A stretch of 64,000 bases of DNA from contig CAJTLY010000007.1 in assembly GCA_910577095.1 (NCBI GenBank), forward strand, positions 34,317 through 98,316. Direction: 5' to 3'. The notes below the pieces were generated by a model that saw only the letters and a program-made list of their open reading frames with translations, did not search any database and was not told the origin of the DNA. The DNA is from an uncultured Alphaproteobacteria bacterium (GTDB taxonomy: Bacteria > Pseudomonadota > Alphaproteobacteria > RF32 > CAG-239). A program made the position numbers and the translations under genes. Shown piece after piece: positions 15,069-45,680 of this stretch (positions are counted from its first letter, which is position 1; the number at the start of each line of letters is the position of its first letter).

Positions 15069-15749
15069 ATGAAAAAGATTCTCCTTGCATTCATACTGTT
15101 TTGTATTTTTCTTCACCCGGTTCGGGCAGCGGAAACCGATTATCCGCTCCTGACCGGACAGGTTGTGGACGAAGCCGGCGTCCTCACCCCGCAACAAAAG
15201 TCGCAGCTGCTGCAACTGCTGGCTGCCGACAAAAACAATCAGGTGGCCGTTGCCGTGGTCAAAGACCTGCGGGGACAAAACGGACGCGAATACGGGATCG
15301 AACTGGCCCGCCGCTGGCAATTGGGACAAAAAGGCAAGGACAACGGCGTGTTGATTTTGCTTTCGCCCAAAGACCGCTACGCCGGCATCGAAGTCGGCTA
15401 CGGACTGGAGGATATTTTACCCGACAGCCTTACCGGCCGGATTTTAAGACAGGAAGTTTTTCCGCCGTTGCAGCGCAATCTCGACTACGGCACTGCCTTG
15501 TTTAACGGAACCAAAGCGGTGATGACGGTATTGGCAGGCGGCGAGCCGGGGTTGGCGGACGAAGAGGCCTCTCCGCTGGAAGACGCCGCTTCCGCACTGC
15601 TGACCTTGCTTATGATTTATCTCATTCTTTCGGGACGCGGGCGTTTTTTGGGCGGCGGCGGATCTTTCTTTCGCCGCGGCGGCGGAGGCGGCGGTTTTCG
15701 CGGCGGCGGCGGCAGTTTCGGCGGCGGCGGTGCCGGCGGACGATTTTGA
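15069..15749 (+). CDS. TPM domain-containing protein (YgcG-like) with Gly-rich tail
   Basis: Signal peptide, a TPM-like core (VVDEAGVL...VAVAVV...NGVLILL...GYGLE), a C-terminal TM and a GGGGxF repeat tail. Sits 12 nt after lemA. Confidence 0.8.
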   Translation: MKKILLAFILFCIFLHPVRAAETDYPLLTGQVVDEAGVLTPQQKSQLLQLLAADKNNQVAVAVVKDLRGQNGREYGIELARRWQLGQKGKDNGVLILLSPKDRYAGIEVGYGLEDILPDSLTGRILRQEVFPPLQRNLDYGTALFNGTKAVMTVLAGGEPGLADEEASPLEDAASALLTLLMIYLILSGRGRFLGGGGSFFRRGGGGGGFRGGGGSFGGGGAGGRF

Positions 15750-15904
15750 GGTATTTTAAATACCGTCAGGCCATGTTTTGCCCCGGTGCCGGCAAGCGCA
15801 AACTCAAATGCCAAAATCAATTTATTTCCGCCCGAAACCTTGAAAAGCGATCACCGCTGCTTATCTAGAAATCAGTTATATTTTCATAAAAAGAGGAAAA
15901 TGCC

Positions 15905-16219
15905 ATGGGAACCATATTAAAATATATCTTTTACGTTGCACTTATCTTGGTCATCTATCTGGTCGCCAGAGGTATCTACGAAGGCCGAATTACCGAAGAC
16001 ACCACGGTTAAAGAAGTCGGCAGCAACATTGCCGACGGCACGGAACAACTGGTCAACGAAACCAAACGTGCAATTGACGACAACAGCAGCGATGCCGCAC
16101 GGGTTGCCGATCAGGCACCGGTTACCCGTCCGGCCGCTCCCGACTCCCAACGCGTTGCCGCGGCTGCCGATTCACAGCGTGCCGCCGCCCGTCGCCCGGC
16201 TCAACAACCGGTCGACTGA
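15905..16219 (+). CDS. small membrane-anchored hypothetical protein
   Basis: 104 aa with GAGGA RBS 7 nt upstream and one N-terminal TM. The C-terminus has a short repeat (A)ADSQR(V/A)AA. Confidence 0.5.
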   Translation: MGTILKYIFYVALILVIYLVARGIYEGRITEDTTVKEVGSNIADGTEQLVNETKRAIDDNSSDAARVADQAPVTRPAAPDSQRVAAAADSQRAAARRPAQQPVD

Positions 16220-16244
16220 CAACACTTCCCCCTATCCGTCCTCC

Positions 16245-16277
16245 GGCTCTCCGTCAAATACGGAGAGCCTTTTTCTT
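16245..16277 (+). terminator. Rho-independent terminator
   Basis: ggctctccg-tcaaata-cggagagcc hairpin followed by a T-run. Confidence 0.75.
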
Positions 16278-16447
16278 ATGCTGATCCCGTTTCCCTATCG
16301 CTTTTTGACAAATATTCGTTAACAAACCTTTCAAATTTATACAAAAAGTTGTGGATAAAAGTTAATAAACCATTTACTTTTAGGTGTATTTATTATATTG
16401 TTCGCGCGTAGCTTGAATCAGGTCCGTCCTGTTTCAGGCTTTTTTTG

Positions 16448-16482
16448 ACCGCCATAGCCGTGTGCTATGGTGGTTTTGTTTT
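16448..16482 (+). terminator. strong terminator-like hairpin only ~27 nt upstream of the 16509 start codon
   Basis: 11-bp stem accgccatagc/gctatggtggt with a 5-nt loop, then TTTGTTTT. Lies downstream of an already terminated gene. Confidence 0.5.
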
Positions 16483-16508
16483 AAACGTATAACTAAGGAT
16501 AAAATAAA

Positions 16509-17831
16509 ATGACTAACAAATTGCAAAACACTAACGATAATCGCCACGGCAGACACAACCGCTTTAACGTCGCGGCGCCGGTGCTTGCCCGACAGATTGA
16601 GGCTTTGTCAGACCCCGGACGGGAACCGCTCCGGCAGATACAAGACCGGCTCAACCGGCTGGGATACGGCGGTTTGGACAACAGCCTGATCGCCGGAATC
16701 AAACAGTTTCAGAAAGATCACGGCCTGCAGGCGGACGGTGTGATCAAAGCCGGCGGCGAAACCCTCCGCAAACTCAATCAACTCAGCAGTGACCCGCAAA
16801 ATTTCCGGCCGATTGCAACAGCGTTGCCCGATACTTCGGGTCTGAGCCTGCGTGAAGAACTGGAAGGCCGCTTTAACGGAACCCTTCCGATCGTCCGAAC
16901 CGATCCGCAAACCGGTTTTCGCTCCGCTTATTATTTCGGCCGCGAGAACGAAACCACGCCGCTTTCTTCCGACCGGGCAGCTCTGTCCATGTTGCCGCAA
17001 GCGCTGACGAAGAAAGATATTAACGCCAAGCCGCACAATTATTTCCGACTGCCGGAAGATTGTCACAATCCTCGTCATCTCTTGCGGATGCACCTGAGAA
17101 GGCTAAATCGGGGTGGCCGGCGTACTGGTTCATTTCAACCCGACCATACCGGTTACAGCATGATCTCCACTTGTGACGACGGCCGCCAGTTCATCAATAT
17201 GCAGGATTTGGAAAGAACTGATGATGGTAAGATCATCTTTAACCACAGTTATACACCGGCACGGAATTACCTCACCGACCACGGCATCGTCACCTGGAGT
17301 ACCGAAATACCGGAAGAGATGAAAGCTCATTACGATAACATGACAGATTATCTCAATGCCAAAAATGCTTCTCACCGCATTGTGGCATTGGGAAATGAGG
17401 CGGAACGCATTTATAATCTGATGGGATTTGAAAACGAGCTGATAAACGCAGTACCGGATCAACAAAAACCGGAATACGGCCTTTCCTTTGATAACTGCAA
17501 TACTTCCACTCAATGGAAAAAAGATAACCACCTTTCCAATTTTGAAGGTGATATAGAAGATATGATGGGCAATCATGTTGCCGGAGAAGGATGGGAAATG
17601 TGGAGAAATGTTAACGACCATTATCAAATTGTCGATGCGGCCAGAAATGCCTTGCTGGCACACAACCCGAAAATTGATTTTGCCGAGATCTGCAATATTC
17701 ATTGGAGTGATATCAACCAACCGCAGGGCGAAATGATGCGTTTTTCCGACAATCAGCGCAACTATATCGTTGATAAAAATCCCAACTATAGGGGTACATA
17801 TCAAGTTATGGTACAGTCGCGGCGGAAATAA
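16509..17831 (+). CDS. hypothetical modular protein with N-terminal peptidoglycan-binding (PG_binding_1-like) domain
   Basis: 440-aa uninterrupted ORF. LGYGGLDNSLIAGIKQFQKDHGLQADGVIKAGGETLRKL matches the PG-binding repeat pattern. The C-terminal ~220 aa are unrecognised and lower in G+C. Confidence 0.7.
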   Translation: MTNKLQNTNDNRHGRHNRFNVAAPVLARQIEALSDPGREPLRQIQDRLNRLGYGGLDNSLIAGIKQFQKDHGLQADGVIKAGGETLRKLNQLSSDPQNFRPIATALPDTSGLSLREELEGRFNGTLPIVRTDPQTGFRSAYYFGRENETTPLSSDRAALSMLPQALTKKDINAKPHNYFRLPEDCHNPRHLLRMHLRRLNRGGRRTGSFQPDHTGYSMISTCDDGRQFINMQDLERTDDGKIIFNHSYTPARNYLTDHGIVTWSTEIPEEMKAHYDNMTDYLNAKNASHRIVALGNEAERIYNLMGFENELINAVPDQQKPEYGLSFDNCNTSTQWKKDNHLSNFEGDIEDMMGNHVAGEGWEMWRNVNDHYQIVDAARNALLAHNPKIDFAEICNIHWSDINQPQGEMMRFSDNQRNYIVDKNPNYRGTYQVMVQSRRK

Positions 17832-17840
17832 TCCGGGCTT

Positions 17841-18362
17841 TTAATTACGCAAAAAAGCAAAATAAGTGGAAAAAAGGGTAAAATAAAAAATTATCCTCAG
17901 CACTTGGGTGGTTCGGGTCGGCTGATGGTCCAAGAAACAGTCTTTGGGCAAACATAAGCCGACCATTCCCCAAAAAGTGGAAGCAAAGAAAATATACATG
18001 GAACCCGTTTCCAACTGATGACGAAAAGGAATAAGAGAATATATTATGCTCATAATAAAAAACACAACTGTCATAGATAAGGATATCCATGTTGCCCGTG
18101 CAAGAAATTGTCGCTTATTGTAACTGAAAACAGCAAAAATGTACGCTAAAAATGCTATAATGTATGGTGTCCCAAACAATAGCTTTTCAAATCCATAACA
18201 CGCCATCTGTTGGGGGGTGTGAGAATCATTCGGATCTGCAAGCATCAACAGATAAAATAATCCCGCTAAAATCGCGCCGATAAAATACAGCGCCCTCACC
18301 ACCTCAAACAATATCCGGCCGTATTTCAAAAATTTCTCATTCTTTAAAACTTGCAACATCAT
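17841..18362 (-). CDS. 5-TM paralog, array copy 1
   Basis: 173 aa, N-terminus MMLQVLKNEKFLKYGRILFEVVRALYFIG. Five hydrophobic segments and the conserved CLPKDCFLDHQPTRTTQ block. Confidence 0.75.
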   Translation of the reverse strand: MMLQVLKNEKFLKYGRILFEVVRALYFIGAILAGLFYLLMLADPNDSHTPQQMACYGFEKLLFGTPYIIAFLAYIFAVFSYNKRQFLARATWISLSMTVVFFIMSIIYSLIPFRHQLETGSMYIFFASTFWGMVGLCLPKDCFLDHQPTRTTQVLRIIFYFTLFSTYFAFLRN

Positions 18363-18473
18363 TCTTCCTCCATTTCTAAAACTCTAGGCTAAATGAAAAA
18401 TGATGTAAAGCTAAATTGTAAAATCCTCCGTCCTCAACAATCGTCCCCTCTCACGGCTAAATAATCGGAGATT
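18363..18473 (-). promoter_or_regulatory. conserved 111-nt leader of array copy 1
   Basis: Near-identical to the three other leaders. Contains GGAGGA just before ATGATG and a twice-repeated ATTTAGC motif. Confidence 0.55.
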
Positions 18474-18529
18474 TTAACCAAAGATATAATAAAGCAAAAA
18501 AGCACAGTAAGTGAATAAAAGGATAAAAA
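18474..18529 (-). pseudogene. relic of the 3' end of a further array paralog
   Basis: ttaaccaaagatataataaagcaaaaaagca... aligns with the last ~55 nt (stop included) of copies 3 and 4, then the homology breaks. Confidence 0.65.
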
Positions 18530-18581
18530 TTCTAACTATACAGATGTATATCAGGTTATGGGACAGCCAAAAGCCGAATAA
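18522..18581 (+). pseudogene. relic of the 3' end of a second copy of the 16509-17831 gene
   Basis: Ungapped alignment to 17772-17831. Translates in frame as DKNSNYTDVYQVMGQPKAE* versus DKNPNYRGTYQVMVQSRRK*, with the stop at the same position. Confidence 0.65.
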
Positions 18582-19107
18582 TTCGGTATACGGGGAAGGA
18601 TAAAAAAGAAATTGATACAATAAAATAAAAAATTATCCTCAGCATTTGGGTGGTTCGGGTCGGCTGATGGTTCAAGAAACAGTCTTTGGGTAAACATAAG
18701 CCGACCATTCCCCAAAAAGTGGAAGCATAAAAGATATATAAGGAGGTCAACGCAAAAATATCGTTATCTATTCGAGGAAAATTATAAGGTATATATTGAG
18801 ACAAAAAAACGATTAGAATTGAAAAAACAGATATCCATGTCACACGCTTTATAAATTGTCTCTTATTATAACTGAAAACGGCAAAGATGTACGCTACAAA
18901 TGCGATCGCCGGAGGAAAACTAAGTAAATCTTTCAGTCCGCTCAAGGCGGCTTGTAATATCGTTTGTCTACCGTTCGGATCTGCAAGCACAACTGTATAG
19001 AATAATCCGACTATAGTCGCACCGATAAAATACAGCGCTCTCACCACCTCAAACAATATTCGACCGTATTTCAAAAATTTCTCATTCTTCAAAACTTGCA
19101 ACATCAT
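18556..19107 (-). CDS. 5-TM paralog, array copy 2
   Basis: 183 aa. Same N-terminus and conserved blocks as the others. Its C-terminus differs because the ORF reads into the plus-strand relic. Confidence 0.7.
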   Translation of the reverse strand: MMLQVLKNEKFLKYGRILFEVVRALYFIGATIVGLFYTVVLADPNGRQTILQAALSGLKDLLSFPPAIAFVAYIFAVFSYNKRQFIKRVTWISVFSILIVFLSQYIPYNFPRIDNDIFALTSLYIFYASTFWGMVGLCLPKDCFLNHQPTRTTQMLRIIFYFIVSISFLSFPVYRIIRLLAVP

Positions 19108-19218
19108 TCTTCCTCCATTCCTAAAACTTTAGGCTAAATGAAAAATGATGTAAAGCTAAATTGTAAAATCCTCCGTCCTCAACAATCGTCCCCTCTCACG
19201 GCTAAATAATCGGAGATT
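19108..19218 (-). promoter_or_regulatory. conserved 111-nt leader of array copy 2
   Basis: Near-identical to the other leaders. Confidence 0.55.
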
Positions 19219-19746
19219 TTAGCCAAAGATATAATAAAGCAAAAAAGCAAAATAAGTGGAAAAAAGGATAAAATAAAAAATTATCCTCAGCACTTGGGTG
19301 GTTCGGGTCGGCTGATGGTCCAAGAAACAGTCTTTGGGCAAACATAAGCCGACCATTCCCCAAAAAGTGGAAGCATAAAAGATAAATACAGACCCTATAT
19401 ATAACAGACCATTGAAAGGAAGGTAAAAAAGCCTCATGTTCGTTATCAAATAAATAGCTCCCCCACTAAGTGATATCCAAGTTGCTCGTTTAATAAATTG
19501 CTCCTTGCTATAACTGAAAACGGCAAAAATGTATGCCGCAAACGCTATTGTCAGAGGAAAACCAAGTAAATCTTTCAGTCCCTCCCATGCGGCTTGTAAT
19601 ATACTCTGTCTGCCATTTGTATCCGAAACCACCAGATAAAACAATCCGATTAAAACTCCGCCGATAAAATACAGCGCCCTCACCACCTCAAACAATATCC
19701 GGCCGTATTTCAAAAATTTCTCATTCTTCAAAACTTGCAACATCAT
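19219..19746 (-). CDS. 5-TM paralog, array copy 3
   Basis: 175 aa. Same N-terminus and conserved blocks, ending LLYYIFG. Confidence 0.75.
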   Translation of the reverse strand: MMLQVLKNEKFLKYGRILFEVVRALYFIGGVLIGLFYLVVSDTNGRQSILQAAWEGLKDLLGFPLTIAFAAYIFAVFSYSKEQFIKRATWISLSGGAIYLITNMRLFYLPFNGLLYIGSVFIFYASTFWGMVGLCLPKDCFLDHQPTRTTQVLRIIFYFILFSTYFAFLLYYIFG

Positions 19747-19857
19747 TCTTCCTCCATTTCTAAAACTCTAGGCTAAATGAAAAATGATGTAAAGCTAAAT
19801 TGTAAAATCCTCCGTCCTCAACAATCGTCCCCTCTCACGGCTAAATAATCGGAGATT
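19747..19857 (-). promoter_or_regulatory. conserved 111-nt leader of array copy 3
   Basis: Near-identical to the other leaders. Confidence 0.55.
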
Positions 19858-20388
19858 TTAGCCAAAGATATAATAAAGCAAAAAAGCAAAATAAGTGGAA
19901 AAAAGGGTAAAATAAAAAATTATCCTCAGCACTTGGGTGGTTCGGGTCGGCTGATGGTCCAAGAAACAGTGTTTCGGCAAACATAAGCCGACTATCCCCC
20001 AAAAAGTGGAAGCAAAGAAAATATACATGGAACCCACGACTACCAGATCATTAAAAGGAACATGAAAAAATCTCATCTGAGTTATAATAGAAATAGCCAA
20101 CGTCAACAACGATATCCATGTCACACGTTTTATGAATTGTCTCTTATTATAACTGAAAACGGCAAAGATGTACGCTACAAATGCGATCGCCGGAGGAATG
20201 GTAAGTAAATCTTTCAGTCCGCTCAAGGCGGCTTGTAATATCGTTTGTCTACCGTTCGGATCTGCAAGCACAACTGTATAGAATAATCCGACTATAGTCG
20301 CGCCGATAAAATACAGCGCTCTCACTACCTCAAACAATATTCGGTCGTATTTCAAAAATTTCTCATTCTTTAAAACTTGCAACATCAT
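19858..20388 (-). CDS. 5-TM paralog, array copy 4
   Basis: 176 aa. The N-terminal half is nearly identical to copy 2 and the C-terminal end to copies 1 and 3. Confidence 0.75.
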   Translation of the reverse strand: MMLQVLKNEKFLKYDRILFEVVRALYFIGATIVGLFYTVVLADPNGRQTILQAALSGLKDLLTIPPAIAFVAYIFAVFSYNKRQFIKRVTWISLLTLAISIITQMRFFHVPFNDLVVVGSMYIFFASTFWGIVGLCLPKHCFLDHQPTRTTQVLRIIFYFTLFSTYFAFLLYYIFG

Positions 20389-20499
20389 TCTTCCTCCATT
20401 CCTAAAACTTTAGGCTAAATGAAAAATGATGTAAAGCTAAATTGTAAAATCCTCCGTCCTCAACAATCGTCCCCTCTCACGGCTAAATAATCGGAGATT
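20389..20499 (-). promoter_or_regulatory. conserved 111-nt leader of array copy 4
   Basis: Near-identical to the other leaders. Confidence 0.55.
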
Positions 20500-20523
20500 T
20501 TAACCAAAGATATAATAAAGCAA
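20500..20523 (-). pseudogene. truncated 3'-end relic of another paralog at the array edge
   Basis: ttaaccaaagatataataaagcaa matches the terminal codons plus stop of copies 3 and 4. Homology ends at about 20523. Confidence 0.55.
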
Positions 20524-20566
20524 GTGGAATTCTTCGTATTCGCAGCGGGCACGGAATTTTCGAGAC

Positions 20567-20596
20567 ACAAAAAAACTCCCCAAAATCGGGGAGTTT
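20567..20596 (-). terminator. Rho-independent terminator after the TPR gene
   Basis: On the minus strand, aaactcccc-gatttt-ggggagttt followed by a T-run. Separates the TPR gene from the array. Confidence 0.7.
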
Positions 20597-20613
20597 CAAA
20601 ATTCGGATCAAGC

Positions 20614-21552
20614 CTATTCTTCTTCGGCAGGCACCAAATCGGGCAGCATTCCGGTAGCCTTTTTGCGTTTAAGTTTGCTGACAAACTTAATCGAACGCTG
20701 GGCATCCCACTTTTTCTTGCCTTCTTCGATCTGGAAGATCTGTTTATAAATCTCTATCGCCTGATCAAACTCGGAAAGCTTGGTCAAACAACTGGCCAGA
20801 CCGTCATAGAGCTTGTGATGATAACGGTTTTCGTTAATCATCTGCGCTTTTTTATAACACTTAAGAGCATCGTTAAATTTCATCATTTTCTGATAAACAA
20901 AACCGATACTGATCCATGCCTGAATTTCGCGACTGTTGATATTCAGAATTTTGGTAAAGCATTTCAAAGCAGAATTGTTATCCCCCATCAGCTGATATGT
21001 TACACCGATACCGTTCCACGCTTTGATGTTCGACTTATCGTATGTCAGAACCTTTTTGAAGAACGAAATCGCACGTTCAAACTGTTTCAGCTTTTGCAGC
21101 GTTACCGCAATGCTGAGCAGTGTCTGGGTGTGTTTGTTGTCAATTTTCATTGCCTGTTCCAACACATCCAACGCTTCTTTATACAAATACATATGCTGCA
21201 GGGCAATTGCTTTGCCGTTCAGAGCTTCGAGCGACGTCGGGTCATTTACCACCGCCTGATCGAACTGGGCAATGGCATCTTTATACAGGCCGCGCATAGA
21301 CAGCGTCACGCCTTTGTTATTAATGACTTCAACCGATTGCGGATTGAGTTCCAGCGCCTTGTCAAAACACTCGACGGCTTCGGTATATCTGCTCAGTTTC
21401 TGCAGGGCAAACCCCTTAGAATTAAGAGCTTTCCAAGATTGCGGCTGTTCTTTAATTGCTTCGTCAAACTGGGCAATTGCTTCTTTGTACATACCTTGGT
21501 CCAACAGCTCCTGACCTCTCCGGTATGCGTTATTTTCATTTGTCTTAACCAT
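20614..21552 (-). CDS. tetratricopeptide (TPR) repeat protein
   Basis: 312 aa with about 8 tandem 34-aa TPR units (W/Y..G.....G.Y..A...F..A...P pattern). Confidence 0.85.
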   Translation of the reverse strand: MVKTNENNAYRRGQELLDQGMYKEAIAQFDEAIKEQPQSWKALNSKGFALQKLSRYTEAVECFDKALELNPQSVEVINNKGVTLSMRGLYKDAIAQFDQAVVNDPTSLEALNGKAIALQHMYLYKEALDVLEQAMKIDNKHTQTLLSIAVTLQKLKQFERAISFFKKVLTYDKSNIKAWNGIGVTYQLMGDNNSALKCFTKILNINSREIQAWISIGFVYQKMMKFNDALKCYKKAQMINENRYHHKLYDGLASCLTKLSEFDQAIEIYKQIFQIEEGKKKWDAQRSIKFVSKLKRKKATGMLPDLVPAEEE

Positions 21553-21622
21553 TAATTTCTCTCTTCACAAAATAATTTGAATTTGAAATTATCACCAAAA
21601 ACGTTTTTTGTCAACATCGCCG

Positions 21623-22573
21623 TTAAATAAATTTCAACTGGCGAAACAGTTCGACATCAGTCCGGGCTTCCATGTACCGGCAATTGAATTTGCGGCAAAA
21701 ATCACGCACGGCAGCCCTTCTGAGGGCAAAAAAGTTTTGATATTCTTTGCGGAAAGACGGGGGACGGCTGTCAAACACCAAGGTTTCGCCGTTGTTTTCC
21801 ACCATATATTCCCCGCTTTTCGGCGCCAGTTCTTCCAACATGTCAAAAACATTAATGCAAAAAACCTGGCTTTTTTTGGCTAATGCCGCCAACGCTTTGC
21901 GGGCTGCGTCGTCAAAAAAGGCAAAATCACTGATCACAAACACCGCCGCCTGACTTTTGATCATTTTGGTCATCAATTGCAACGGCCGCGTCAGGCCGTC
22001 GTCCGCTTTGGCTTTTCCGGCGTTGGGCAGAACTTTGCGCCCGGTTTCCGAAATTTTTTTCAAAACTGCCAGCAGATGAGCACGGTTTTGCTGCGGTTTA
22101 AACGTCCAAGTTTCTTTGCCGTCATAAAGGGCTGCGCCGAATCGGTCTTTATTTTCCTGCGCCAGCCAGCCGATCAAAGCGGCCGCCTTGCTGGCGGTGA
22201 CCGATTTCAGTTCCTTGCGGGTTCCGAAAACCATGCTCGGCGACAAATCGAGCAGCACATAAATTTCACGGTCTTTTTCTTCGGCATAAATTTTGGTATA
22301 AGGGCTTTTTTTGCGCGCCGTAACCCGCCAGTCAATGTCGCGCACGTCATCCCCGAAACTGTAAGCGCGGATTTCTTCCATTTCGATGCCGCGGCCCTTA
22401 AAAGCCGACTTCACCTCGCCGACACGATCCGAAGGCTGTATTTTGCCGCTTTGGCGGAGATATGCCAGATTCTTTCGCTGTTCCATCAGTTCTTCCAGCG
22501 ACGCATACAGGCCTCCGGCGTTTTCTTCGCGGCGACGGAACCAACCGGCCGCCATTTCGGCAAATTTTTGCAT
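21623..22573 (-). CDS. DUF58 domain-containing protein (vWA-like, MoxR partner)
   Basis: 316 aa. DVRDIDWRVTARK signature followed by the VLLDLSPSM vWA-like strand. Immediately downstream of the MoxR gene. Confidence 0.85.
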   Translation of the reverse strand: MQKFAEMAAGWFRRREENAGGLYASLEELMEQRKNLAYLRQSGKIQPSDRVGEVKSAFKGRGIEMEEIRAYSFGDDVRDIDWRVTARKKSPYTKIYAEEKDREIYVLLDLSPSMVFGTRKELKSVTASKAAALIGWLAQENKDRFGAALYDGKETWTFKPQQNRAHLLAVLKKISETGRKVLPNAGKAKADDGLTRPLQLMTKMIKSQAAVFVISDFAFFDDAARKALAALAKKSQVFCINVFDMLEELAPKSGEYMVENNGETLVFDSRPPSFRKEYQNFFALRRAAVRDFCRKFNCRYMEARTDVELFRQLKFI

Positions 22574-22599
22574 AACATTCCTCCTGCCGTTGCGGCTGC

Positions 22600-23571
22600 T
22601 TACGGCAGCGGTACCAGATTGAGCAGACGGCCGATAATGTCATCGGTACTGTAACCTTCTGCCTGGGCTTCAAAACTCAGGATAATCCGATGACGCAAAA
22701 CATCATAGACCACGGCATGAATATCTTCCGGCGTCACAAAATCGCGATCGTCCAGCCAGGCATTGATTTTTGCGCAACGGTCCAGAGCGATTGTCGCCCG
22801 CGGGCTGGCACCGAACATCACCATCCCCGCCAATTCCTGATCATATTTTTCCGGCTTGCGGGTCGCTACAATCAACTGCACCAGATATTCTTCCAGTTCC
22901 TTGCTGATATGTACCGACAGCGCTTCCCGCGTTGCCGCTTCCACATCGGCAATTTCGATCTTGTCAAAGCTTTTTTGCAGATTCGGCGTGCTGAGTGTCC
23001 CTTCGCCGCGGACCAGTTCAAGGATTTTGTGTTCGTCTTCAGCGCCCGGCTGATCAATGCGGATATACATTAAAAAGCGGTCCAACTGGGCCTCGGGCAA
23101 ATTGTAGGTTCCTTCGTGTTCGATCGGATTTTGAGTTGCCATCACCATAAACAGACGCGGCAGCAAAAAACGCTGGCCGCCGACGCTGACCTGACGTTCC
23201 GCCATCGCTTCCAGCAAAGCCGACTGAACTTTGGCCGGCGCACGGTTGATTTCATCGGCCAAAACCATGTTGGCAAAAATCGGTCCCTTGCGAAATTCGA
23301 ACTCGCCTTTCTGACTGACGTAAATCTCGCTTCCGGTAATATCGGACGGCAGCAGGTCGGGCGTAAACTGAATCCGGTTAAAGCTGGCGGAAATGCCGTC
23401 GGCCAGCGTTTTGACCGCCTTGGTTTTGGCCAGACCGGGCGCCCCTTCGACCAAAGCGTGTCCTTCGGCCAACAGGGTAATGATCATTTTTTTCACCAGA
23501 TCCCTCTGACCGATGATTCTGCTTTCCATATATTTCTTTAAGCCGATGATTTTATCGCGTGTCTCTGACAT
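22600..23571 (-). CDS. MoxR family AAA+ ATPase
   Basis: 323 aa with Walker A GAPGLAKT, Walker B VLADEINRA, and the QNPIEHEGTYNLPEAQLDRF motif. Confidence 0.92.
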   Translation of the reverse strand: MSETRDKIIGLKKYMESRIIGQRDLVKKMIITLLAEGHALVEGAPGLAKTKAVKTLADGISASFNRIQFTPDLLPSDITGSEIYVSQKGEFEFRKGPIFANMVLADEINRAPAKVQSALLEAMAERQVSVGGQRFLLPRLFMVMATQNPIEHEGTYNLPEAQLDRFLMYIRIDQPGAEDEHKILELVRGEGTLSTPNLQKSFDKIEIADVEAATREALSVHISKELEEYLVQLIVATRKPEKYDQELAGMVMFGASPRATIALDRCAKINAWLDDRDFVTPEDIHAVVYDVLRHRIILSFEAQAEGYSTDDIIGRLLNLVPLP

Positions 23572-30705: not shown

Positions 30706-33030
30706 CTACTCGCTCAAAACCGGCCGCACCGTGACCCGAACAGCCGTAAAGCGTCCTTTGTCGTCAACCGCTTTTAACTCCCACTCTCCTTGTCCAAACT
30801 CCGTTTCCAGGGTTTCTCCGACGTCGCAAACCCCGATCAGCGTTCCGTTTTGAAACCAGAAAATGCGCCGGGCGTCGGCATCGGCAGAAGCCTTCAGCAA
30901 AACTTTTTCCTTGCCGCCGTCGGTCAGACCGGTCAACAAAACACTGCCGTCAGCCGGATTTAATATTTGCGGTGCATTGCCGATGTGCGCGGTTTCGATC
31001 AAATCGCAATCTTCACCGAATTCGGGCGGACGGCGCACCGCCACCCCGGCGGCACGATACGCCGCCAACACGTCCGACGGCCAGAACTCGAAACTTTTCA
31101 TCACTGTCTGCGGCGGACGATGACGGCAGGCTCTTTTTCCGCTAACGCGGTCGATCGGAACCCGCCGCGATATGTTCGAAACCTTAATTCGGGTCACGCC
31201 GGGAATAAAATACGACTTGATCGTTTCCTGACAATCGGCATCGGCAATGTCGCCGGTGGAACGACAAACATCCGTTTGGGACAGATTAAGCCCCGCGGGT
31301 GAAATGGCATCCCCGTTTATTCCCAAGTTTTTGGCAAGACTGCGGACAATTCTGAAAAACAACGGTGCGGCAGCCTCTTGTCCCGTCAGGGCCGGATTCG
31401 GCCGCCCGTCAAAATTGCCCAGCCATACCACCACCACATAATCGCCGACGACGCCGGCCGCCCAGGCGTCGCGATAACCAAACGACGTTCCGGTTTTCCA
31501 GTATACTCTGTAAGGCTCGTGCGCCGCGGCAAAAGCATAATAATCCCGATCCGCCGGAGGATTATGCCTTAACATGTCCATGGTCAGAAAAGCCGCCTCG
31601 GGACTGATCAGCTGCTTTCCGCTGTCTGTTTGCGCCTCCCTGATCCATTTCAGTTTGCGAAAACGGCCGCCGTCCGCCAACATCGCATACATCTCCGCCA
31701 CATTTTCCATCGTCAGTTCATAGCCGCCCAACGCCAGCGCCAAACCATAAAAATCGACGCTTTTCAATCTCTTAATTTCACTTTCTTTCAGCAACATATA
31801 ATATTTGTCGATTCCGATTTTCAAAAGCAGTTCCACCGCCGGAACATTGCGGCTTTTTACCAGCGCCGAAGTGGCATCCATCATTCCGTAAAACCGGCGG
31901 TCATAGTTTTCGGGCGTATAATTGGCAAAATTGCGCGGAACGTCCTTCAAACGGCTGTGGGGATGGATAAGTCCCTGTTCCAGCGCCAGAGCATAAATAA
32001 ACGGCTTCATCACCGAACCCGGCGACCGAAAAGCCCGCGTACCGTCCACCTGACCTTCAATCGCCGCATTGAAAAAACCGGCCGACCCCACTTTGGCCAA
32101 CACGCTCATATCCCGTCGGTTAACAATCAATACCGCCGCATTCTCAATGCCGTATTTTTTGCTTGCTTTAACATACCGCAAGACAATATCTTCCGTCATT
32201 TGCTGATAATTGAGGTCAATCGTGGCGTATACGCTGCCGCGTCGCAGTTTTTTAAGCTGCTGCACCAGATGCGGCGCCGCAAACGGCCGGTGAAGACTGA
32301 CGGCCGGCGGCATGGCGGCCGATTTCCCGTCATTGCCGTATTCTTTTTGCCACATTTCCGCCAGTCTTTGATAAGCCCGTACGGCTTCTTTTTTGCCGTG
32401 GCGGCTGCCCGGACTTCTTTTCGACGGGTTTTGCGGAATAACCGTCAACGTTATGATCTGATCGCGATTCAGTTTTTCCGGAACGGTTTCAAAATAGATT
32501 TGCGCCGCGGCCGCAATGCCTTCAATATTCATGCCGTAGGGTGCCAAATTAAAATAGGCTTCCAGAATTTCCTGCTTGGAATAGAACATTTCTATCTGCA
32601 ACGCCCGCAAAATCTGTTCAAATTTACCGCTGAGGGTTGACGAGTCGATACCATACACCATTCGTGCCAGCTGCATCGTAATCGTCGACGCTCCCTGTTT
32701 GCGCGCACCGGCCAGCATTAACAGCGCCGATTTAACCGCCCGCAGCGGATTGACCCCGAAATGAAAGAAGAAATAACGATCCTCATAAAGCAACAACGCT
32801 TTTACCGCTTCCGGCGGAATTTGCCGATAAGAAACACGCAGCCGGTATTTGTCGTCCATGCTGAGTCCCAAATGCAGCAAACGTTCGTTGCGGTCATAAA
32901 CGGCCGTAGAATAAGTATACTTTTCCAACAGTTCGGGCCGCGGCACCGCCGCATAAAGGGCTGCGGCAACGACCGCCGTTGCAACCGCCCCCAACAATAC
33001 CTTGCGAAGAATTTGCTTACGGTTCCACAT
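30706..33030 (-). CDS. pbpC: penicillin-binding protein 1C
   Basis: ATG at 33030 overlaps the A2M stop by 14 nt. Glycosyltransferase motifs (EDRYFFFH, GASTITMQ), a transpeptidase SxxK-like GSVMKP, and a KTGTS motif. Confidence 0.9.
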   Translation of the reverse strand: MWNRKQILRKVLLGAVATAVVAAALYAAVPRPELLEKYTYSTAVYDRNERLLHLGLSMDDKYRLRVSYRQIPPEAVKALLLYEDRYFFFHFGVNPLRAVKSALLMLAGARKQGASTITMQLARMVYGIDSSTLSGKFEQILRALQIEMFYSKQEILEAYFNLAPYGMNIEGIAAAAQIYFETVPEKLNRDQIITLTVIPQNPSKRSPGSRHGKKEAVRAYQRLAEMWQKEYGNDGKSAAMPPAVSLHRPFAAPHLVQQLKKLRRGSVYATIDLNYQQMTEDIVLRYVKASKKYGIENAAVLIVNRRDMSVLAKVGSAGFFNAAIEGQVDGTRAFRSPGSVMKPFIYALALEQGLIHPHSRLKDVPRNFANYTPENYDRRFYGMMDATSALVKSRNVPAVELLLKIGIDKYYMLLKESEIKRLKSVDFYGLALALGGYELTMENVAEMYAMLADGGRFRKLKWIREAQTDSGKQLISPEAAFLTMDMLRHNPPADRDYYAFAAAHEPYRVYWKTGTSFGYRDAWAAGVVGDYVVVVWLGNFDGRPNPALTGQEAAAPLFFRIVRSLAKNLGINGDAISPAGLNLSQTDVCRSTGDIADADCQETIKSYFIPGVTRIKVSNISRRVPIDRVSGKRACRHRPPQTVMKSFEFWPSDVLAAYRAAGVAVRRPPEFGEDCDLIETAHIGNAPQILNPADGSVLLTGLTDGGKEKVLLKASADADARRIFWFQNGTLIGVCDVGETLETEFGQGEWELKAVDDKGRFTAVRVTVRPVLSE

Positions 33031-36000
33031 CGATCCGGTCTGCTTTGGTGGTCGCACGCACGGCCGGATCGTATAAAGCTTCGGCAACTGCCGGCGGAAC
33101 CACAAAACTGCCCCGTGCAATCACCTTGGTTTTATAAGTCACAGTTCTTGCCGAAGGTGACGCCGTCAGATACACCAGCGCCCGGTCCTCACGCAACTCA
33201 TAGTTGTCCGTTTCTCCTTTGAGCGAGTTCTGTACCATCTCCAAACATCCGGGTATCAAATCAACAATCGCCACGTCGTTAACATACTTGCCGTTTTGGC
33301 TGCGGATTTTCAAAACCACCGTAATTTCATCGCCGATTTCCGCTTTCTGCAGCCGCTCGCCGTCTTTGTCGAGGTAGGTCTTGCTGATTTCCAGCCCTTG
33401 CGAAAGCGGTTTGCCGGCCGGTTCTTTCAAAAAGCCGTTTTCGCTGATCACATAGTAAAACGGTCGGTCGGAAGCAACTTCCAGTTCTTTGACCGAAGCG
33501 TCCAGCGGAAAACGGGCAAAGCCTTTTCCCTGATACTTTGTACCGTTAAACGAAATATCGTTGTCGCTGTCGCTGCGTCCGACGGCGTTCAGCGCCAGCA
33601 ACGCATTTCCGGCCGAAGCGGTGGTGAAGTTGCCCTGCTTTAACGGTTTCAGCAATGCCTCAACGCTCTTCTGCCCCAAACTCTTAAGGTCATCGGGAAA
33701 ATGAACTGCTGTCAGATAAATATAGCGGGCATCTTTTACCGTATTCCGGCCGGTTTTGTAATAACCGGTCAGTTGCCGCGCTTTGGCGTCGTTTTGCAGC
33801 AGTTTATAAGAAGCGGCCAGATAAACCGAAGCCAGCGAAGAACGCGCTTGGGAAGAATCCGGCAACCCGAGATCCCGCTCAATCCGTGTCAGATATCCTG
33901 AGGTTATTTCACCGTTCAGCGTCAGCAGATAAGCCGCATACGCCGGATTGTCATCCAAGTCTCCCCGCACCGGACGTGCAGCCACATTGCGCGCATACTG
34001 CAACGCTTTGTTCAGCAACGAAGCCGGAACCTCAAGGTTGTTCTTGCGTGCCGAGAGTAAAAAGTGCAAAGCATAGAGGCTGTCATACTCTCGGGCCTGC
34101 GACCACTCGGAAGACCAGGCCTTGAAACTCCCCTCCAGCGTTTGCCGTTCCGTCAGCTTGGCCAAAACGTCGTCATAAAGCGCATAAATGTCCGCGTCTT
34201 TCAACAATTCCGGCTTGTTAAAGAATATTTCCATTGCCGGAAACACCTTACTGACCGACTGCTCGGTACAAAAATGCGGAAAGGCGTTCAAGAACGTCAG
34301 CAACCCTTGTGTCAACACCAACGGCGAAGCCGACGCAACAACTTCCTGAGAACGGTATTCTTCAAACATCGGCCGTACAAAATCTTTCAGCTTCAGGGTG
34401 TTGGCGGCAAAACCCATTTTATTCTCGGAAACAAACGAACTTGCCGGACGTATCCCCACTTCGTAAGAAATTCGGGACGACTGATCGCCGTTATCACGGT
34501 TGGAAGCGATGAAGGCCAGCGGCACCGATCCCAGACGTTCGCCGCTCTTAACCTTAAAACGCGCTTGTCCCTCTTCGCCGTAAGCCAACTTCAGAACCTG
34601 AACGTCGTCGCCGACAACTTCCAGTCCCTTCCCCGCCATCAGACGCACTTCTACCGGAATTGCCGGTGAATTTTCCATCATGTTGGCAACACTGACGGCC
34701 GCGTCGAAAACATCTCCCGGCGAAACATTGTAAGCGCCGGAAGGAACCAATGCAAAGTCTCCGCGCACGGCCGTCTGCCGTTCCGTCTCTCCCATCCGGC
34801 GCTCGGAAACGCCGACCGCTATGATTTTGATTTCGCCGTTAAAGTTTTCGGGAACCTGATAAGTGTAGGTCCGGGGCGTTGTTTCAACGGGCACAATTCC
34901 GCTCCAGAAAACGACCGGACGGTTCTGCTTGCGGGCAAACGGATTGACCCGCAAATCGGGTTTGGCGCCCGTTTCCATATCGCCGCCGATTCCTTTCAGA
35001 TAACGCACGATTTTGATGTCGGGCAAAATCAGGTCAAGAATTTGCGAAGTCACCACCTGCAGCGCTTTCTTTTGGATAAAATAGTTCAACGGCTGCGGCA
35101 TTTGGTACCGGGCCACTTGTAAAATACCGGTATTGACACCGTAAATAATCACTTCTCCCGGATAATCCGCCTGATATTCAATCGTCAGTTCGCGTCCGGG
35201 TTTTACCGTTGCCGGCGCATTCAGACCGATCTTGAGGCGGCGCGCCGCCTTGTTGATCGAAAACGGAACCACGGCATAACTCAGCGGCGAAACGAATATC
35301 TTGTCGGAATCGAGATTCCGGATCCACGAAACATTGATATAAGCGTTCCCCTCTATCCCCTGCGGCAGTTCAATTTCCTGCGTCGTGGACGAGGTCTCGG
35401 ATTTGAACCATTTGTAAGCATACACCTTGTCCCGTTCAATCGTGATCAGCCCGTAACCGGAATACGGCGCCGATATTTGCATCTGAATCTGCTCACCGTC
35501 GTTATATTCGCTGCGATTCAGCTTAATTTCCAACCCGGCTTCGGTATCGGCGGCATAAGTCGAATTGGTGTCTCCGGTCACGCTGTAATCGATCCGCATC
35601 ACAATATTTCCGTCCGCATCTTCCGCCTGCAAATAATAGTCGCCCGGCGCTTCGGTATTGAGAAAACGGCTGCTTCCGCCGGCGTCAATCGAAAAATCCT
35701 CGCTTTTGAGTTTTTTTTCTGCCGGAACCGCTTTGTAACGATAGGTACGGTCCGGCATCTGAACCAGACTGGAAACATACTCGCGTTGATACAGGCTCAG
35801 TTTCAAATCATTAAGCGCAATCGGCTGCAGAGACGAATCAACCGCCACCAGCCGCACCCGGCGAACCGAAGACTTGTAGATATAGTTCAGGGCGCCGTCG
35901 GCCTTAAAACCTACCAGATAAGCGTTCGGCGACACCAGCATTCCTGCCGATGCCGACACGCCGCGGCCTCCGGTCAGTTCCAACCCGTCGACATTGATAT

Positions 36001-42744: not shown

Positions 42745-42911
42745 CGTATACCTCTTAATTATCTTTCGCTAAATAAGATAATGATGCTTCCGGTCTTTTC
42801 AACAACCGCCGCATTTTTTATTTGCCTGCAAACAGTTATTTGACATCCCGCTATTTTCACATAAGAAAAGACTGCTACCTTACGGCAGCAGTCTTTTCTT
42901 TGATTTCGGGG

Positions 42912-43160
42912 TCAACCTCTGTAGAACCACCACGAAATCAACACGTTTCTTTTACCGGTAATCCAGCAAAAGATCGTATAGATCCCGCCGATCACAGCAC
43001 CAAAAGCCCACATACCGCCGAAAATCCAGCCGATAAGCGCGCCGAGAAACGCCGTGATCACCAGTTCGAGCACATAGCTCAAACCGTTGTAGAACAATTC
43101 TTTGCACGCACCGCAAAGAACACATACTATAAAACCGCCGAAAATAATACTTGCTATCAT
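42912..43160 (-). CDS. small Gly-rich membrane protein
   Basis: 82 aa with 3 hydrophobic segments carrying GxxxG-like spacing. Confidence 0.45.
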   Translation of the reverse strand: MIASIIFGGFIVCVLCGACKELFYNGLSYVLELVITAFLGALIGWIFGGMWAFGAVIGGIYTIFCWITGKRNVLISWWFYRG

Positions 43161-43229
43161 AGTTTTAATTTTTTTAAATTTTACATTTGTCTCCGATTAT
43201 CAGCTCTCAACGCCGGAGACTTGGCGTTG

Positions 43230-43544
43230 TCAGAACAAAAACTTATTATCATTTTTTCTCCAAGATCCCCAGTGAACAATCACCAGAAAAACATTGACAA
43301 TCACGATGCCTGTTAAGGTCACAATCATCTCCGTATATCCCGGGAAAAACTTATTAATGATACCGTCGATTATCCCTCCTACCAAAACCGGTAAGAAATT
43401 TACAAACAAAGATACCCATGTCTGTATGGCATCATCGGTTTTAGTGGTAAACATCAACCATAAACCGGTCAATATCATTACACCCAAACCAATTTTTAGA
43501 GATAAACATAAAGTTACGGTCTCAGTTATTGTCGTTGTTTCCAT
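43230..43544 (-). CDS. small membrane protein
   Basis: 104 aa with 3 predicted TM helices. Preceded by a 370-nt AT-rich region. Confidence 0.45.
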   Translation of the reverse strand: METTTITETVTLCLSLKIGLGVMILTGLWLMFTTKTDDAIQTWVSLFVNFLPVLVGGIIDGIINKFFPGYTEMIVTLTGIVIVNVFLVIVHWGSWRKNDNKFLF

Positions 43545-43916
43545 AATATTTAGATTTAAAGGTTATTACTGTTGTCTGTTCAAGTTTTCACTCAAATGTT
43601 CGACAGTTACAACCGATAAAAAAGGCAAAACCTAATTTTATGACGGCAAGCTTGCGAATAATTGAATAGAAAAATTGAACAGACTAATTTTGTTATACCT
43701 TTATTATATGTTTTTTGTCACAAATTGCAAGCAAAATCCTGCTTTTTTGTCATTTTTTTTAATTAACCCTATATTCTTGACAAAATACAAGCTGATAAGC
43801 TTCGCAATTGTGCAAACAACTTCTCTCAAATTCAAAAATCCGCTGGAGCAGCCGATATTTAGCCTTACCGAAAGAATTCCTTATTTCACAAAAAAAGCCC
43901 CGTCTCCGGGGCAAAA

Positions 43917-45680
43917 TTATGATTGCGGCACTTCATCCAACAACGGCCACTTGCCTTCCAGAAATTGCTGCAAACTTTGCTGCTTTTGCCGCAACCGCGA
44001 CCCATACATCCAATAGTTGGTAATCACCCGCTTAACGTACAATCGAGTTTCCCGCCACGGAATCATTTCCATAAACAACAGGGGATCGTTTTGATAATCA
44101 ATATTTTCAACCCATCGTTTCAGGTTATGCGGACCGCCGTTATAAGAAGCCGCCAAAAAAATCAGATTATCGCCGACATGTTCCTTTTGCCGCAACAGAG
44201 AAACATAATCCTGACCGATCTTCAGGTTAACCTGGCGGTCAAACAACGGCCGCCAGTTGGTTTTAAAAGATTTATCGCCGGTCACTTCGGCTGCGGTTGC
44301 CGGCATCACCTGCATCAATCCGCAAGCACCGGCATGGCTGCGCACCGTCGGCGCAAATAAAGATTCCTGCCGGGTGAGCGCCCATACCCATGCCGGATTG
44401 ACCGTCCACCCCGGTTCCGGCTGCCACGCCGGCCGCGGGTACAAAAACGGATCATAGGCGCGACCTTTGTCATAGTTTTTCAGATCGTTAGCCACCACAA
44501 AACTCAAATTCGCCAAGCTGTACTGGCTGCTGATATAAAGCAAAAGTTCTTTCTGGCGAATATTCATTTTGCCGTAATTGCGGCGCAAATCGCTTTCGGC
44601 CAAATCCGGCTGCCCCGCTTCCGCCAGCAAAACCCCGCGCCGGATCGCCGGAGAAGCCACGATTTCTTTTATGTAAGATTTGTCGTCCAAACGGTTAAAA
44701 TAATGACGCGGCTGCCAGTCATAGCTGACTTTGTCGGTCAGCATATAACGGGCCAAAATCCCGTAAAAAGTACGCGGATATTTGGTGGCAAGCCGTAAGT
44801 TGGCGGTTGCTCCGTCGGGACGCTTTAACTTGATGTTGGCACGATAAGCCCAATACGCACCGGCAGCTGTCAACCAGGGATCATTATCCTTCAGGCGTGC
44901 CAGCCTGCCAAAATAATCGGCCGCCAGTTTATAATTTTTTTCCTTCCAGGCCGCCAGACCGCCAAACCAGCTCGCCGTTGCGTCATGGCTGCGCAAGATC
45001 GGCTGCCGGCTCCATTTTAAGGCCGCTTTATTGTCACCTTCCAGAAAATAAGCCGATGCCAAAGTCGCGCTCATCGCATCATAATTCTTTACCGGCATCA
45101 GTTTTTTGAACTTTTTGTCATTTAATATTTTGACCGCCGTCTCATGCTTGGAACTGCGGATCGATTTGAGGAATTCGTCAATTTTGGTTTTGACATATTT
45201 GCGGTCGGCCGCTTTCAGACGCGTATAGCCGTCCTTATACCAACTGTAGGATGCATAAATCTTTTTCTTTTCCTTGACCGGCTTGGGAGGCTTGTAGCCG
45301 GGCGCTTTCGTCACCGCCAGATTTTTGATCCGTTGATATTGCGGAAGCATCGGATACCTTTTTAACCAGCTCTGCAATTCTTCATAAGAAGATTTGTAAT
45401 CTTTATGCAGGTATTTCTCCGCCAACACATGCCCGAGCAACGCATGGCCTTTGAGTTTTTTCTGCAGTTCTTCCGCCGTTTTAATATCGTTGGCTTTCAA
45501 AGCAGCGAAAATATCACGGTAATTTTTGACGTCGGCTTCGGAAACAGCGGCCTCTTCCCGTACCCGACGATAAACCGTCGGGTCGATAATTTTAAAATTT
45601 TTTGACGCTGCCGCGGCCTCCCACGGAAGCATCAGCAACGCCAAAAACACTGTCAAAACTTTTTTCAATTTTTTACTCAA
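43917..45680 (-). CDS. slt: soluble lytic murein transglycosylase (Slt70-like)
   Basis: 587 aa with a signal peptide, a long helical N-domain, and the SLT catalytic block RQESLF...GLMQVMPATA. Confidence 0.88.
   Translation of the reverse strand: MSKKLKKVLTVFLALLMLPWEAAAASKNFKIIDPTVYRRVREEAAVSEADVKNYRDIFAALKANDIKTAEELQKKLKGHALLGHVLAEKYLHKDYKSSYEELQSWLKRYPMLPQYQRIKNLAVTKAPGYKPPKPVKEKKKIYASYSWYKDGYTRLKAADRKYVKTKIDEFLKSIRSSKHETAVKILNDKKFKKLMPVKNYDAMSATLASAYFLEGDNKAALKWSRQPILRSHDATASWFGGLAAWKEKNYKLAADYFGRLARLKDNDPWLTAAGAYWAYRANIKLKRPDGATANLRLATKYPRTFYGILARYMLTDKVSYDWQPRHYFNRLDDKSYIKEIVASPAIRRGVLLAEAGQPDLAESDLRRNYGKMNIRQKELLLYISSQYSLANLSFVVANDLKNYDKGRAYDPFLYPRPAWQPEPGWTVNPAWVWALTRQESLFAPTVRSHAGACGLMQVMPATAAEVTGDKSFKTNWRPLFDRQVNLKIGQDYVSLLRQKEHVGDNLIFLAASYNGGPHNLKRWVENIDYQNDPLLFMEMIPWRETRLYVKRVITNYWMYGSRLRQKQQSLQQFLEGKWPLLDEVPQS

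Follow-up and report, generated by a model that had tools for sequence, protein, structure and literature searches.

A tandem array of four genes for small membrane proteins with five predicted transmembrane (TM) helices (5-TM genes) was located on the minus strand of contig CAJTLY010000007.1 of an uncultured alphaproteobacterium (RF32; CAG-239). The window, which is the whole analysed stretch of 64,000 nucleotides (nt), also held a plus-strand gene at 16509-17831 that encodes a toxin-like protein of 440 amino acids (aa) and is convergent with the array. The four open reading frames (ORFs) of 173-183 aa were found at 17841-20388, with the common N-terminus and the invariant blocks listed in the initial annotation. 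All four started with MMLQVLKNEKFLKY(G/D)RILFEVVRALYFIG and pairwise identities were 63-78%. Copy 1 (17841-18362, 173 aa) was proximal to the toxin-like gene and is the putative cognate immunity gene. The stops of the two genes lay 9 nt apart (17832-17840); in L002 and L012, two of the comparison loci, all of which are human-gut short-read metagenome assemblies, the distance was 0 nt. Copy 2 (18556-19107, 183 aa) resembled copy 4 in its 5' half and had a unique second variable block and tail. Copy 3 was located at 19219-19746 (175 aa). Copy 4 (19858-20388, 176 aa) was a mosaic, similar to copy 2 up to approximately nt 270-290 and to copies 1 and 3 thereafter.

Each copy was preceded by its own leader of 111 nt, located on the minus strand at 18363-18473, 19108-19218, 19747-19857 and 20389-20499 for copies 1 to 4. 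The leaders carried GGAGGA before ATGATG, had GGAGGAAGAATGATG as their 3' end and were identical at 109-111 of 111 bases, which bears out the private, near-identical leaders described in the initial annotation. Two single-nucleotide polymorphisms grouped the leader of copy 4 with that of copy 2 and the leader of copy 3 with that of copy 1. At the array head lay the 3'-end stub of a 5-TM gene (..LLYYIFG*; 20500-20530, minus strand), and the same stub was present in the single-copy relatives. The minus-strand spacer 3' of the copy 2 stop (18474-18555) held the 3'-end stub of another copy (..CTTTATTATATCTTTGGTTAA = LLYYIFG*, approximately 18474-18530). A strong intrinsic-terminator-like hairpin at 20572-20597 (minus strand) closes the upstream TPR gene and insulates the array from the MoxR-DUF58-TPR operon. 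The conserved 3' block of each copy contained, in a different reading frame, an ORF of 53-81 aa (MGNGRLMFAQRLFLGPSADPNHP...; 17845-18090, 18551-18715, 19202-19363 and 19841-20002). These ORFs were dropped as genes and are most likely by-products of the conservation of this block.

Promoter-like elements were found in every leader as TTTACA-17-TA(A/G)AGT, with 9 of 12 positions matching the promoter consensus. They were located at 18409-18381 (TTTACA-17-TAGAGT), 19154-19126, 19793-19765 and 20435-20407. The number of promoter-like matches in the region was not above the shuffled expectation. The variant TTTACA-17-TAAAGT was found in the window and in L002, L013 and L021_a, and the CTAAAGT element and the Shine-Dalgarno sequence were kept in leaders that were otherwise 46-66% identical. 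We infer one promoter per copy. No terminator-like site with a stem and a clear T-run was detected in the inter-copy spacers or between copy 1 and the toxin-like gene, and the remaining weak matches of the terminator scan were located within coding sequence or at its end. Since the two stops are 9 nt apart with no terminator between them, the convergent transcripts should overlap. The leader RNA (20383-20499 and the other three leaders) folded better than shuffled sequences (-29.8 kcal/mol, z = -2.7). In its 3' hairpin, CAUCAUUUUUC paired with the Shine-Dalgarno sequence and AUGAUG. This predicted hairpin could mask translation on read-through transcripts and leave it unaffected on transcripts from the leader's own promoter. 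No RNA family was found with Rfam over 15500-21000.

The convergent gene encoded two modules. The constant N-terminal module (N-module, aa 1-148; 16509-16952, plus strand) contained a PG_binding_1 domain (PF01471, E = 2e-8) at aa 39-89. The exchangeable C-terminal domain, CT-A (aa 149-440; 16953-17831, plus strand), contained invariant Cys, His, Asp and Glu residues. GC content decreased in steps from 0.563 in the N-module to 0.458 in CT-A and 0.375 in the array, compared with 0.480 across the window, which is consistent with an acquired cassette. The 440-aa protein was predicted to be soluble, with a maximum 19-residue hydropathy (KD19) of 0.40. It had no signal peptide and no hydrophobic stretch, and the hydrophobic hairpin of pore-forming domains was likewise absent at this maximum. 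The AlphaFold2 model was mixed alpha/beta and weak (pLDDT 61). CT-A, with approximately 290 aa, had no match in Pfam, PDB or BFVD. Searches with CT-A and with CT-B, the alternative C-terminal domain described below, gave nothing above noise in Pfam, NCBIfam, PHROG and PADLOC. The only PHROG matches of the 440-aa protein were to the peptidoglycan (PG)-binding part of endolysins (phrog_2649, E = 1e-5).

Compared with the 90% identical homolog P0009, 27 of the 45 differences fell in aa 321-380 (approximately 17469-17648) and one in the first 200 residues. This hypervariable patch may be a specificity interface. Motifs of ADP-ribosyltransferases in CT-A were considered and dropped, as the candidate residues were neither invariant nor in canonical order in the alignment. 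A papain-like arrangement of Cys330, His398 and Asp/Asn agreed with the secondary structure prediction; since part of it falls in a region of low confidence, it is taken as a lead only.

The 5-TM proteins were orphans in the searches. Among 5.8 billion clustered proteins, seven related clusters were found. When 1.84 billion representatives were searched with a profile, two clusters of the same kind were the only matches, and a single distant relative, P0015 (E = 2.8e-19), was gained. The toxin-like protein was likewise an orphan with seven clusters. For the 5-TM proteins, nothing above noise was detected in Pfam, NCBIfam, PHROG and PADLOC, and PDB searches with single sequences and profiles gave no match, in line with the initial annotation, which had recognised no family. 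When three copies were scanned against Pfam at E <= 1, only sub-threshold noise (DUF5090, GhoT_OrtT, DUF2070) and no DUF443 came up. The colicin-immunity families of Pfam were not matched either. The family is thus a lineage-restricted orphan and not the single-copy housekeeping family that the initial annotation had named as evidence against its reading.

Hydropathy indicated five hydrophobic segments per protein. The AlphaFold2 model, although weak (pLDDT 58.5), had matching helices. Foldseek found no match with E <= 0.001 in PDB and BFVD for this model or for that of the 440-aa protein. Lysine and arginine numbered four at the N-terminus, four in loop 2 and two in loop 4, and the net charge was zero in loops 1 and 3. 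The predicted arrangement is an inner-membrane protein with N-in/C-out topology. Column entropy peaked in the predicted periplasmic loops 1 and 3 (1.31 and 1.46) and, for each of the five helices, in the outer half; the lowest values were those of the predicted cytoplasmic segments (0.15, 0.58 and 0.30). Variability is therefore predicted to map to the periplasmic face.

The four units were compared by nucleotide alignment, with positions counted within the copy. Identity between copies was 98-100% in the leader, 92-97% at nt 0-90, 53-97% at nt 90-210 (var1), 75-93% at nt 210-285, 38-62% at nt 285-375 (var2) and 91-97% at nt 375-490. The variable windows corresponded to aa 30-68 and 94-119, close to the approximate limits of 30-70 and 95-125 proposed beforehand. 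Copy 4 was 93-97% identical to copy 2 over the segments of nt 90-285, with about 68% in a 40-nt window from nt 260, and dropped to 49% over nt 285-375. Copy 4 was 95-100% identical to copy 1 over approximately nt 360-500 and had the LLYYIFG end in common with copy 3. The similarity of copies 2 and 4 for about 280 nt with abrupt divergence thereafter, the part common to copies 1 and 4 and the shared end of copies 3 and 4 had all been described in the initial annotation and were reproduced here.

Recombination breakpoint analysis, which the initial annotation had proposed as a check, gave a strong signal (Fisher p of about 1e-18). A single-breakpoint Fisher test on informative sites was used and approximately 140 breakpoint positions were tried. 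Copy 4 was best described with copy 2 on the left and copy 1 on the right of a breakpoint at nt 269-282 (sites 67:5 vs 16:51, p = 6e-18). With copy 3 as the right parent, the sites were 3:53 vs 53:12 (p = 8e-19). Because of these p-values, the mosaic is far beyond chance despite the number of breakpoints tried. Variable blocks were also reassorted. The var1-A block was joined to var2-a in copy 4 and to var2-c in copy 2, and var2-d was joined to var1-C in copy 1 and P0004 and to var1-D in P0005. The var2 block of copy 1 was 65% identical to that of the distal copy of L002, compared with 11-27% for neighbouring copies in the window.

Ongoing exchange was visible in a near-identical genome, L001. 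The window and L001 differed at 14 of 20,143 gap-free bases. All 14 mismatches lay at 18345-20371, inside the array, which makes up 13% of the aligned span; with uniform placement this would be expected with a probability of approximately 6e-13. At 14 of 14 sites, the base in L001 matched a different copy in the homologous column. The eight differences in copy 4 all matched copy 2, which itself was unchanged, and the exchange was therefore non-reciprocal. The pattern indicates non-allelic gene conversion, with the caveat that the window and L001 both come from short-read assemblies. Since paralog-derived changes in the array are all that separates the two genomes over 20 kb of otherwise identical sequence, the recombination can be read directly.

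Over longer distances, the leaders were 98-100% identical within the window and 63-66% identical to those of L002 and L012, whose flanks were 89-92% identical. The N-terminal 29 residues were 97-100% identical within the window and 66-72% between lineages. The conserved blocks thus evolve in concert. The close relative L022 (GCA_948652595.1) was discarded as a two-copy variant because a scaffold gap of 100 N was present at L022:3690-3790, inside the first leader. This gap means that short-read assemblies of the array are not to be taken at face value; no runs of N were found in the remaining loci. A diversity-generating retroelement or invertase was dropped as the source of the variation, as no reverse transcriptase or recombinase was present nearby and the differences were not adenine-specific.

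Related loci had syntenic flanks, with MoxR-DUF58-TPR on one side and a 104-aa protein, TPM, LemA, MlaC and MlaA on the other. The window and L001 held four 5-TM copies and an intact toxin-like gene. Two copies were present in five assemblies (L002-L006), where the toxin-like gene was intact and 72% identical in L002-L005 and partly visible in L006. L012 and L015 held one copy next to a frameshifted toxin-like gene. One copy was also present in L013, L014, L017 and L007, in which CT-A was replaced by CT-B. The most distant lineage, L021, which came from the same metagenome as L009, had a tandem array as well, with at least 2-3 copies. Across all loci, the 5-TM copy number was 1, 2, 4 or at least 2-3. 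Invariance of the array across strains, which the initial annotation had set against its own reading, was therefore not found: copy number was 1-4 and 14 differences separated the window from L001.

In the four loci with CT-B (L013:10529-11707; also L014, L017 and L007), the N-module (aa 1-148, 91% identical, P0013) was fused to this unrelated domain. The window sequence at 16952-17704 was replaced in L013 at the nucleotide level, and protein similarity to P0013 ended after aa 148. CT-B was followed by an overlapping same-strand ORF of 41 aa with one TM helix and then by a stub of CT-A (aa 392-440). Such displacement of C-terminal domains defines polymorphic toxins (PMC4436062). In a phage, CT-B and a 40-aa ORF formed a conserved pair between terminase and portal (L018:6001-6562). 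An in-frame premature stop was observed in CT-B of L013 and also in L014, L017 and L007.

The convergent 5-TM gene was found 0-36 nt from every CT-A homolog whose downstream sequence was visible. The pair of CT-A and 5-TM gene, always convergent, occurred in three unrelated contexts, namely the syntenic locus, L009 and L008. In L009, the chromosomal neighbourhood was different, the toxin-like protein was 61% identical and the 5-TM gene was convergent. In L008, the CT-A homolog P0014 was located directly after a phage portal gene (phrog_12082, E = 3e-113), and the last 102 nt of the contig encoded the convergent C-terminal 21 residues of a 5-TM family member (HILRIMFYLTILLTYLVNYMF*). Because the pairing recurs in the L009 and L008 contexts, CT-A and its partner form a mobile two-gene module. 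No relatives were found in IMG/VR, the INPHARED phage collection and the PLSDB plasmids. A further region of the phage-like contig L008 (L008:235-1788) encoded a 346-aa protein with Ntox44, LysM and a partial Phage_Mu_F domain, adjoined by a divergent multi-TM gene of 161 aa. The latter was ruled out as a relative of the 5-TM genes (hhalign probability 0.1%).

Decay affected the two genes differently. In L012 (L012:10001-11331) and L015, the toxin-like gene was split by a frameshift or stop into ORFs of 156 aa and 282 aa, and the adjacent 5-TM gene was intact. The 5-TM gene of L013 was also intact, though CT-A was displaced and CT-B carried a nonsense codon. The membrane gene thus outlives the toxin gene. 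The var2 type of the proximal copy was var2-d beside A1-type CT-A (the window and the L013 stub) and var2-e beside A2-type CT-A (L002 and L012).

The locus is probably a polymorphic toxin gene with an array of cognate and orphan 5-TM immunity genes, belonging to a new sequence family. The initial annotation had linked an immunity-like array to the convergent protein, and this connection gained support from the C-terminal swap, the conserved convergent pairing, the retention of the 5-TM gene, the change in copy number and the recombination. The toxin would combine the constant N-module, which has a peptidoglycan-binding domain, and CT-A as exchangeable effector domain at the C-terminus. The 5-TM proteins would neutralise domains of the CT-A type at the periplasmic face through the two variable loops and the outer helix halves. 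They could bind the effector itself or shield the membrane-associated target of the effector. Copy 1 would confer cognate immunity, and copies 2-4 would act as orphan immunities against CT-A variants of competitors. Each copy would be transcribed from the promoter in its own leader, independently of the convergent toxin gene. Gene conversion would keep the leader with the first approximately 90 nt and the block at nt 375-490 near-identical within a genome. These blocks would serve as homology arms, by which gene conversion and unequal exchange reassort the variable blocks and alter copy number. Toxicity, action in the periplasm, protection, the topology and the use of the promoters are inferred.

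Several observations weigh against this interpretation. CT-A and CT-B resemble no known toxin, enzyme or fold, and the AlphaFold models were weak (pLDDT 61 and 58.5). The layout with an N-terminal PG_binding_1 domain is also typical of endolysins of phages of Gram-negative bacteria. No signal peptide or recognised trafficking domain was found in the protein and no secretion system among the scanned large ORFs of the 64-kb window. The 5-TM genes are convergent with the toxin gene, whereas most immunity genes of polymorphic toxins are co-directional and located downstream (PMC4436062). The match between the CT-A type and the var2 block of the proximal copy is suggestive, with two toxin types only and confounding by phylogeny. 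The topology was derived from hydropathy and the positive-inside rule only. Finally, consensus artefacts in short-read assemblies could mimic some conversion tracts and repeat collapse could understate copy number.

Comparable arrangements are known from other systems. Ten tandem 5-TM DUF443 (TsaI) genes adjoin TspA in Staphylococcus aureus (PMC7456083). As in that locus, a polymorphic toxin lies beside non-identical small membrane proteins with five predicted TM helices (PMC7456083, PMC9484751), a toxin-gene fragment occurs within the locus and the sequence beyond a conserved 5' block is variable. The differences are considerable. No DUF443 match was obtained here, the host is a Gram-negative alphaproteobacterium instead of a firmicute, and neither a type VII secretion system (T7SS) nor an LXG-type domain was present. 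The predicted topology is N-in/C-out, whereas Nout-Cin was reported for TsaI (PMC7456083). The orientation to the toxin gene is convergent, each 5-TM gene has a leader of its own, recombination between copies was strong, whereas little was found for tsaI, and the 440-aa protein, unlike TspA, had no predicted channel-forming region.

The recombination resembled that of tandem esaG and tipC immunity paralogues, which recombine through conserved blocks (PMC9484751). There, too, the variable segments lie between conserved blocks, found at the ends and in the middle of the genes, and recombination alters the number of copies and yields mosaics (PMC9484751). Differences between close strains likewise cluster in the array. 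EsaG is described in that study only as the immunity protein of the EsaD nuclease and TipC as a protein of beta-strands and alpha-helices with a concave toxin-binding face, and neither is called polytopic (PMC9484751), whereas integral-membrane 5-TM proteins are predicted here. Those genes belong to T7SS loci of firmicutes, and in the window the conserved block extends over a non-coding leader of 111 nt with a promoter-like element.

The initial annotation had drawn an analogy with the immunity genes of pore-forming colicins. Such genes carry a promoter of their own, and each encodes a small inner-membrane protein with three or four TM helices. The location of the immunity gene on the strand opposite the toxin (PMC4436062) was shared by the locus. 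The remainder of the analogy did not hold, as neither a hydrophobic hairpin nor a match to a colicin-immunity family was found. In contrast to colicins, the locus is chromosomal, lacks a lysis gene, has four shuffled immunity paralogs and encodes a CT-A domain predicted to be mixed alpha/beta. Similarity to CDI, Rhs and Maf systems lies in the constant N-terminal region with alternative C-terminal domains, each with its own small partner gene (PMC4436062), in the displaced C-terminal stubs that remain and in the modules by which related strains differ. Displaced stubs and orphan modules were represented by the CT-A stub in L013 and by the extra 5-TM copies and 3'-end stubs in the window. Different from these systems, the N-module is short, at approximately 148 aa, and PG_binding_1 was detected in it but no domain recognised for secretion or trafficking. 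The partner gene of CT-A has a convergent orientation, although the immunity gene is typically found downstream on the same strand (PMC4436062), and the orphans in the window are immunity genes only and not pairs of C-terminal domain and immunity gene.

The muf genes are defined by their position immediately downstream of the portal gene (PMC5576092). P0014 occupies this position in phage, CT-B homologs occur in the same packaging module and each of them has a small partner ORF, either downstream or facing it. No MuF (Phage_Mu_F) domain was detected in P0014 or the window protein, no portal or terminase gene was found near the window locus, and it was not located in a prophage. Features of a holin-endolysin cassette were not found, as no muralytic catalytic domain or holin family was matched and the genes are convergent. 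Judged by sequence, the locus is not a member of the DUF443, colicin-immunity or MuF families. As these matches, a pore-forming hairpin and a known trafficking domain were all missing, the two genes appear to be a new family pair that works like a known kind. The array is most likely a bank of immunity genes, a known strategy for which previously undescribed protein families are used here.

The phage relatives of both exchangeable domains allow another explanation, in which the 5-TM proteins mediate superinfection exclusion or anti-phage defence. They would block a CT-A-type virion protein that is ejected or carried in the capsid, the chromosomal gene for the 440-aa protein would be a captured phage gene, and the array would diversify against phages instead of rival bacteria. 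The homologs in phage packaging modules (P0014 after the portal gene and CT-B between terminase and portal) agree with this explanation, as does the convergent layout with own promoters, which resembles phage morons. Variability at the periplasmic face would fit equally well. However, the L008 phage itself bears a convergent 5-TM partner beside its CT-A gene, as predicted for a toxin-immunity module, and the chromosomal gene retains a conserved bacterial N-module and swaps its C-termini. There were also no matches in PADLOC or PHROG and no homologs among 50,697 phage records or in IMG/VR. Defence against phages is considered improbable.

An export or lysis function appears still less probable. 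The signal-less protein would then be an endolysin-like murein hydrolase, and the 5-TM protein (for CT-A) and the 41-aa protein with one TM helix (for CT-B) would be holin-like partners for release or lysis. This agrees with the endolysin architecture of an N-terminal PG_binding_1 domain without signal peptide, with the sole PHROG matches, with a small membrane protein for each alternative C-terminal domain and with the phage relatives of these domains. Yet four diverged paralogs, each with a conserved promoter-like element, are not the pattern of a holin, and hypervariable outward loops have no obvious use in one. The 5-TM genes face the supposed lysin gene convergently instead of being co-transcribed with it, and the membrane gene stays intact where the lysin gene has decayed. 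The locus lies outside a prophage with syntenic housekeeping genes in its flanks, and no holin or muralytic family was matched.

The least likely explanation is an unrelated lineage-specific membrane family, such as a transporter subunit or an envelope structural protein, with meaningless adjacency and neutral gene conversion; homology assigns no function and tandem duplicates undergo gene conversion whatever their function. However, the pairing with CT-A, convergent in every case and at a distance of 0-36 nt, is kept in three unrelated contexts. Variable blocks of approximately 40-50% nucleotide identity stand beside blocks of 92-100%, only one predicted face of the membrane shows the variation and the locus diverges faster than its flanks.

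A toxin with an immunity array, if true, would bring in a toxin domain, a family of membrane immunity proteins and a candidate delivery module, none of which is recognised by current databases. The source group consists of uncultured but common human-gut Alphaproteobacteria. The locus would be an unusually clean natural case of immunity diversification, and the variable periplasmic blocks together with aa 321-380 of the toxin would form a candidate specificity interface. The effector-partner cassettes shared with phage packaging modules would tie chromosomal polymorphic toxins to phage-borne ones. A bolder proposal is speculative and rather doubtful. The PG_binding_1 module would define an unrecognised class of toxins of Gram-negative gut bacteria without known secretion apparatus, with cassettes from phage packaging modules. 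CT-A would be a new periplasm-acting enzyme, possibly a Cys-His hydrolase, blocked by a new polytopic immunity family whose two outward-facing blocks are reshuffled by gene conversion.

Other features of the window were observed in the surroundings of the locus. Upstream of the array and sharing its strand lay genes for MoxR (AAA_3), DUF58 and TPR proteins (20614-23571). The TPR protein of 312 aa was 100% identical in all relatives despite flanking DNA of 89-92% identity. The region at 42800-43900 was AT-rich (GC 0.378 in 43001-44000) and contained short low-complexity ORFs only, with no obvious gene. At 30706-38542, a bacterial alpha-2-macroglobulin (1841 aa) adjoined a PBP1c-type penicillin-binding protein (804 aa), which is a recognised gene pairing.

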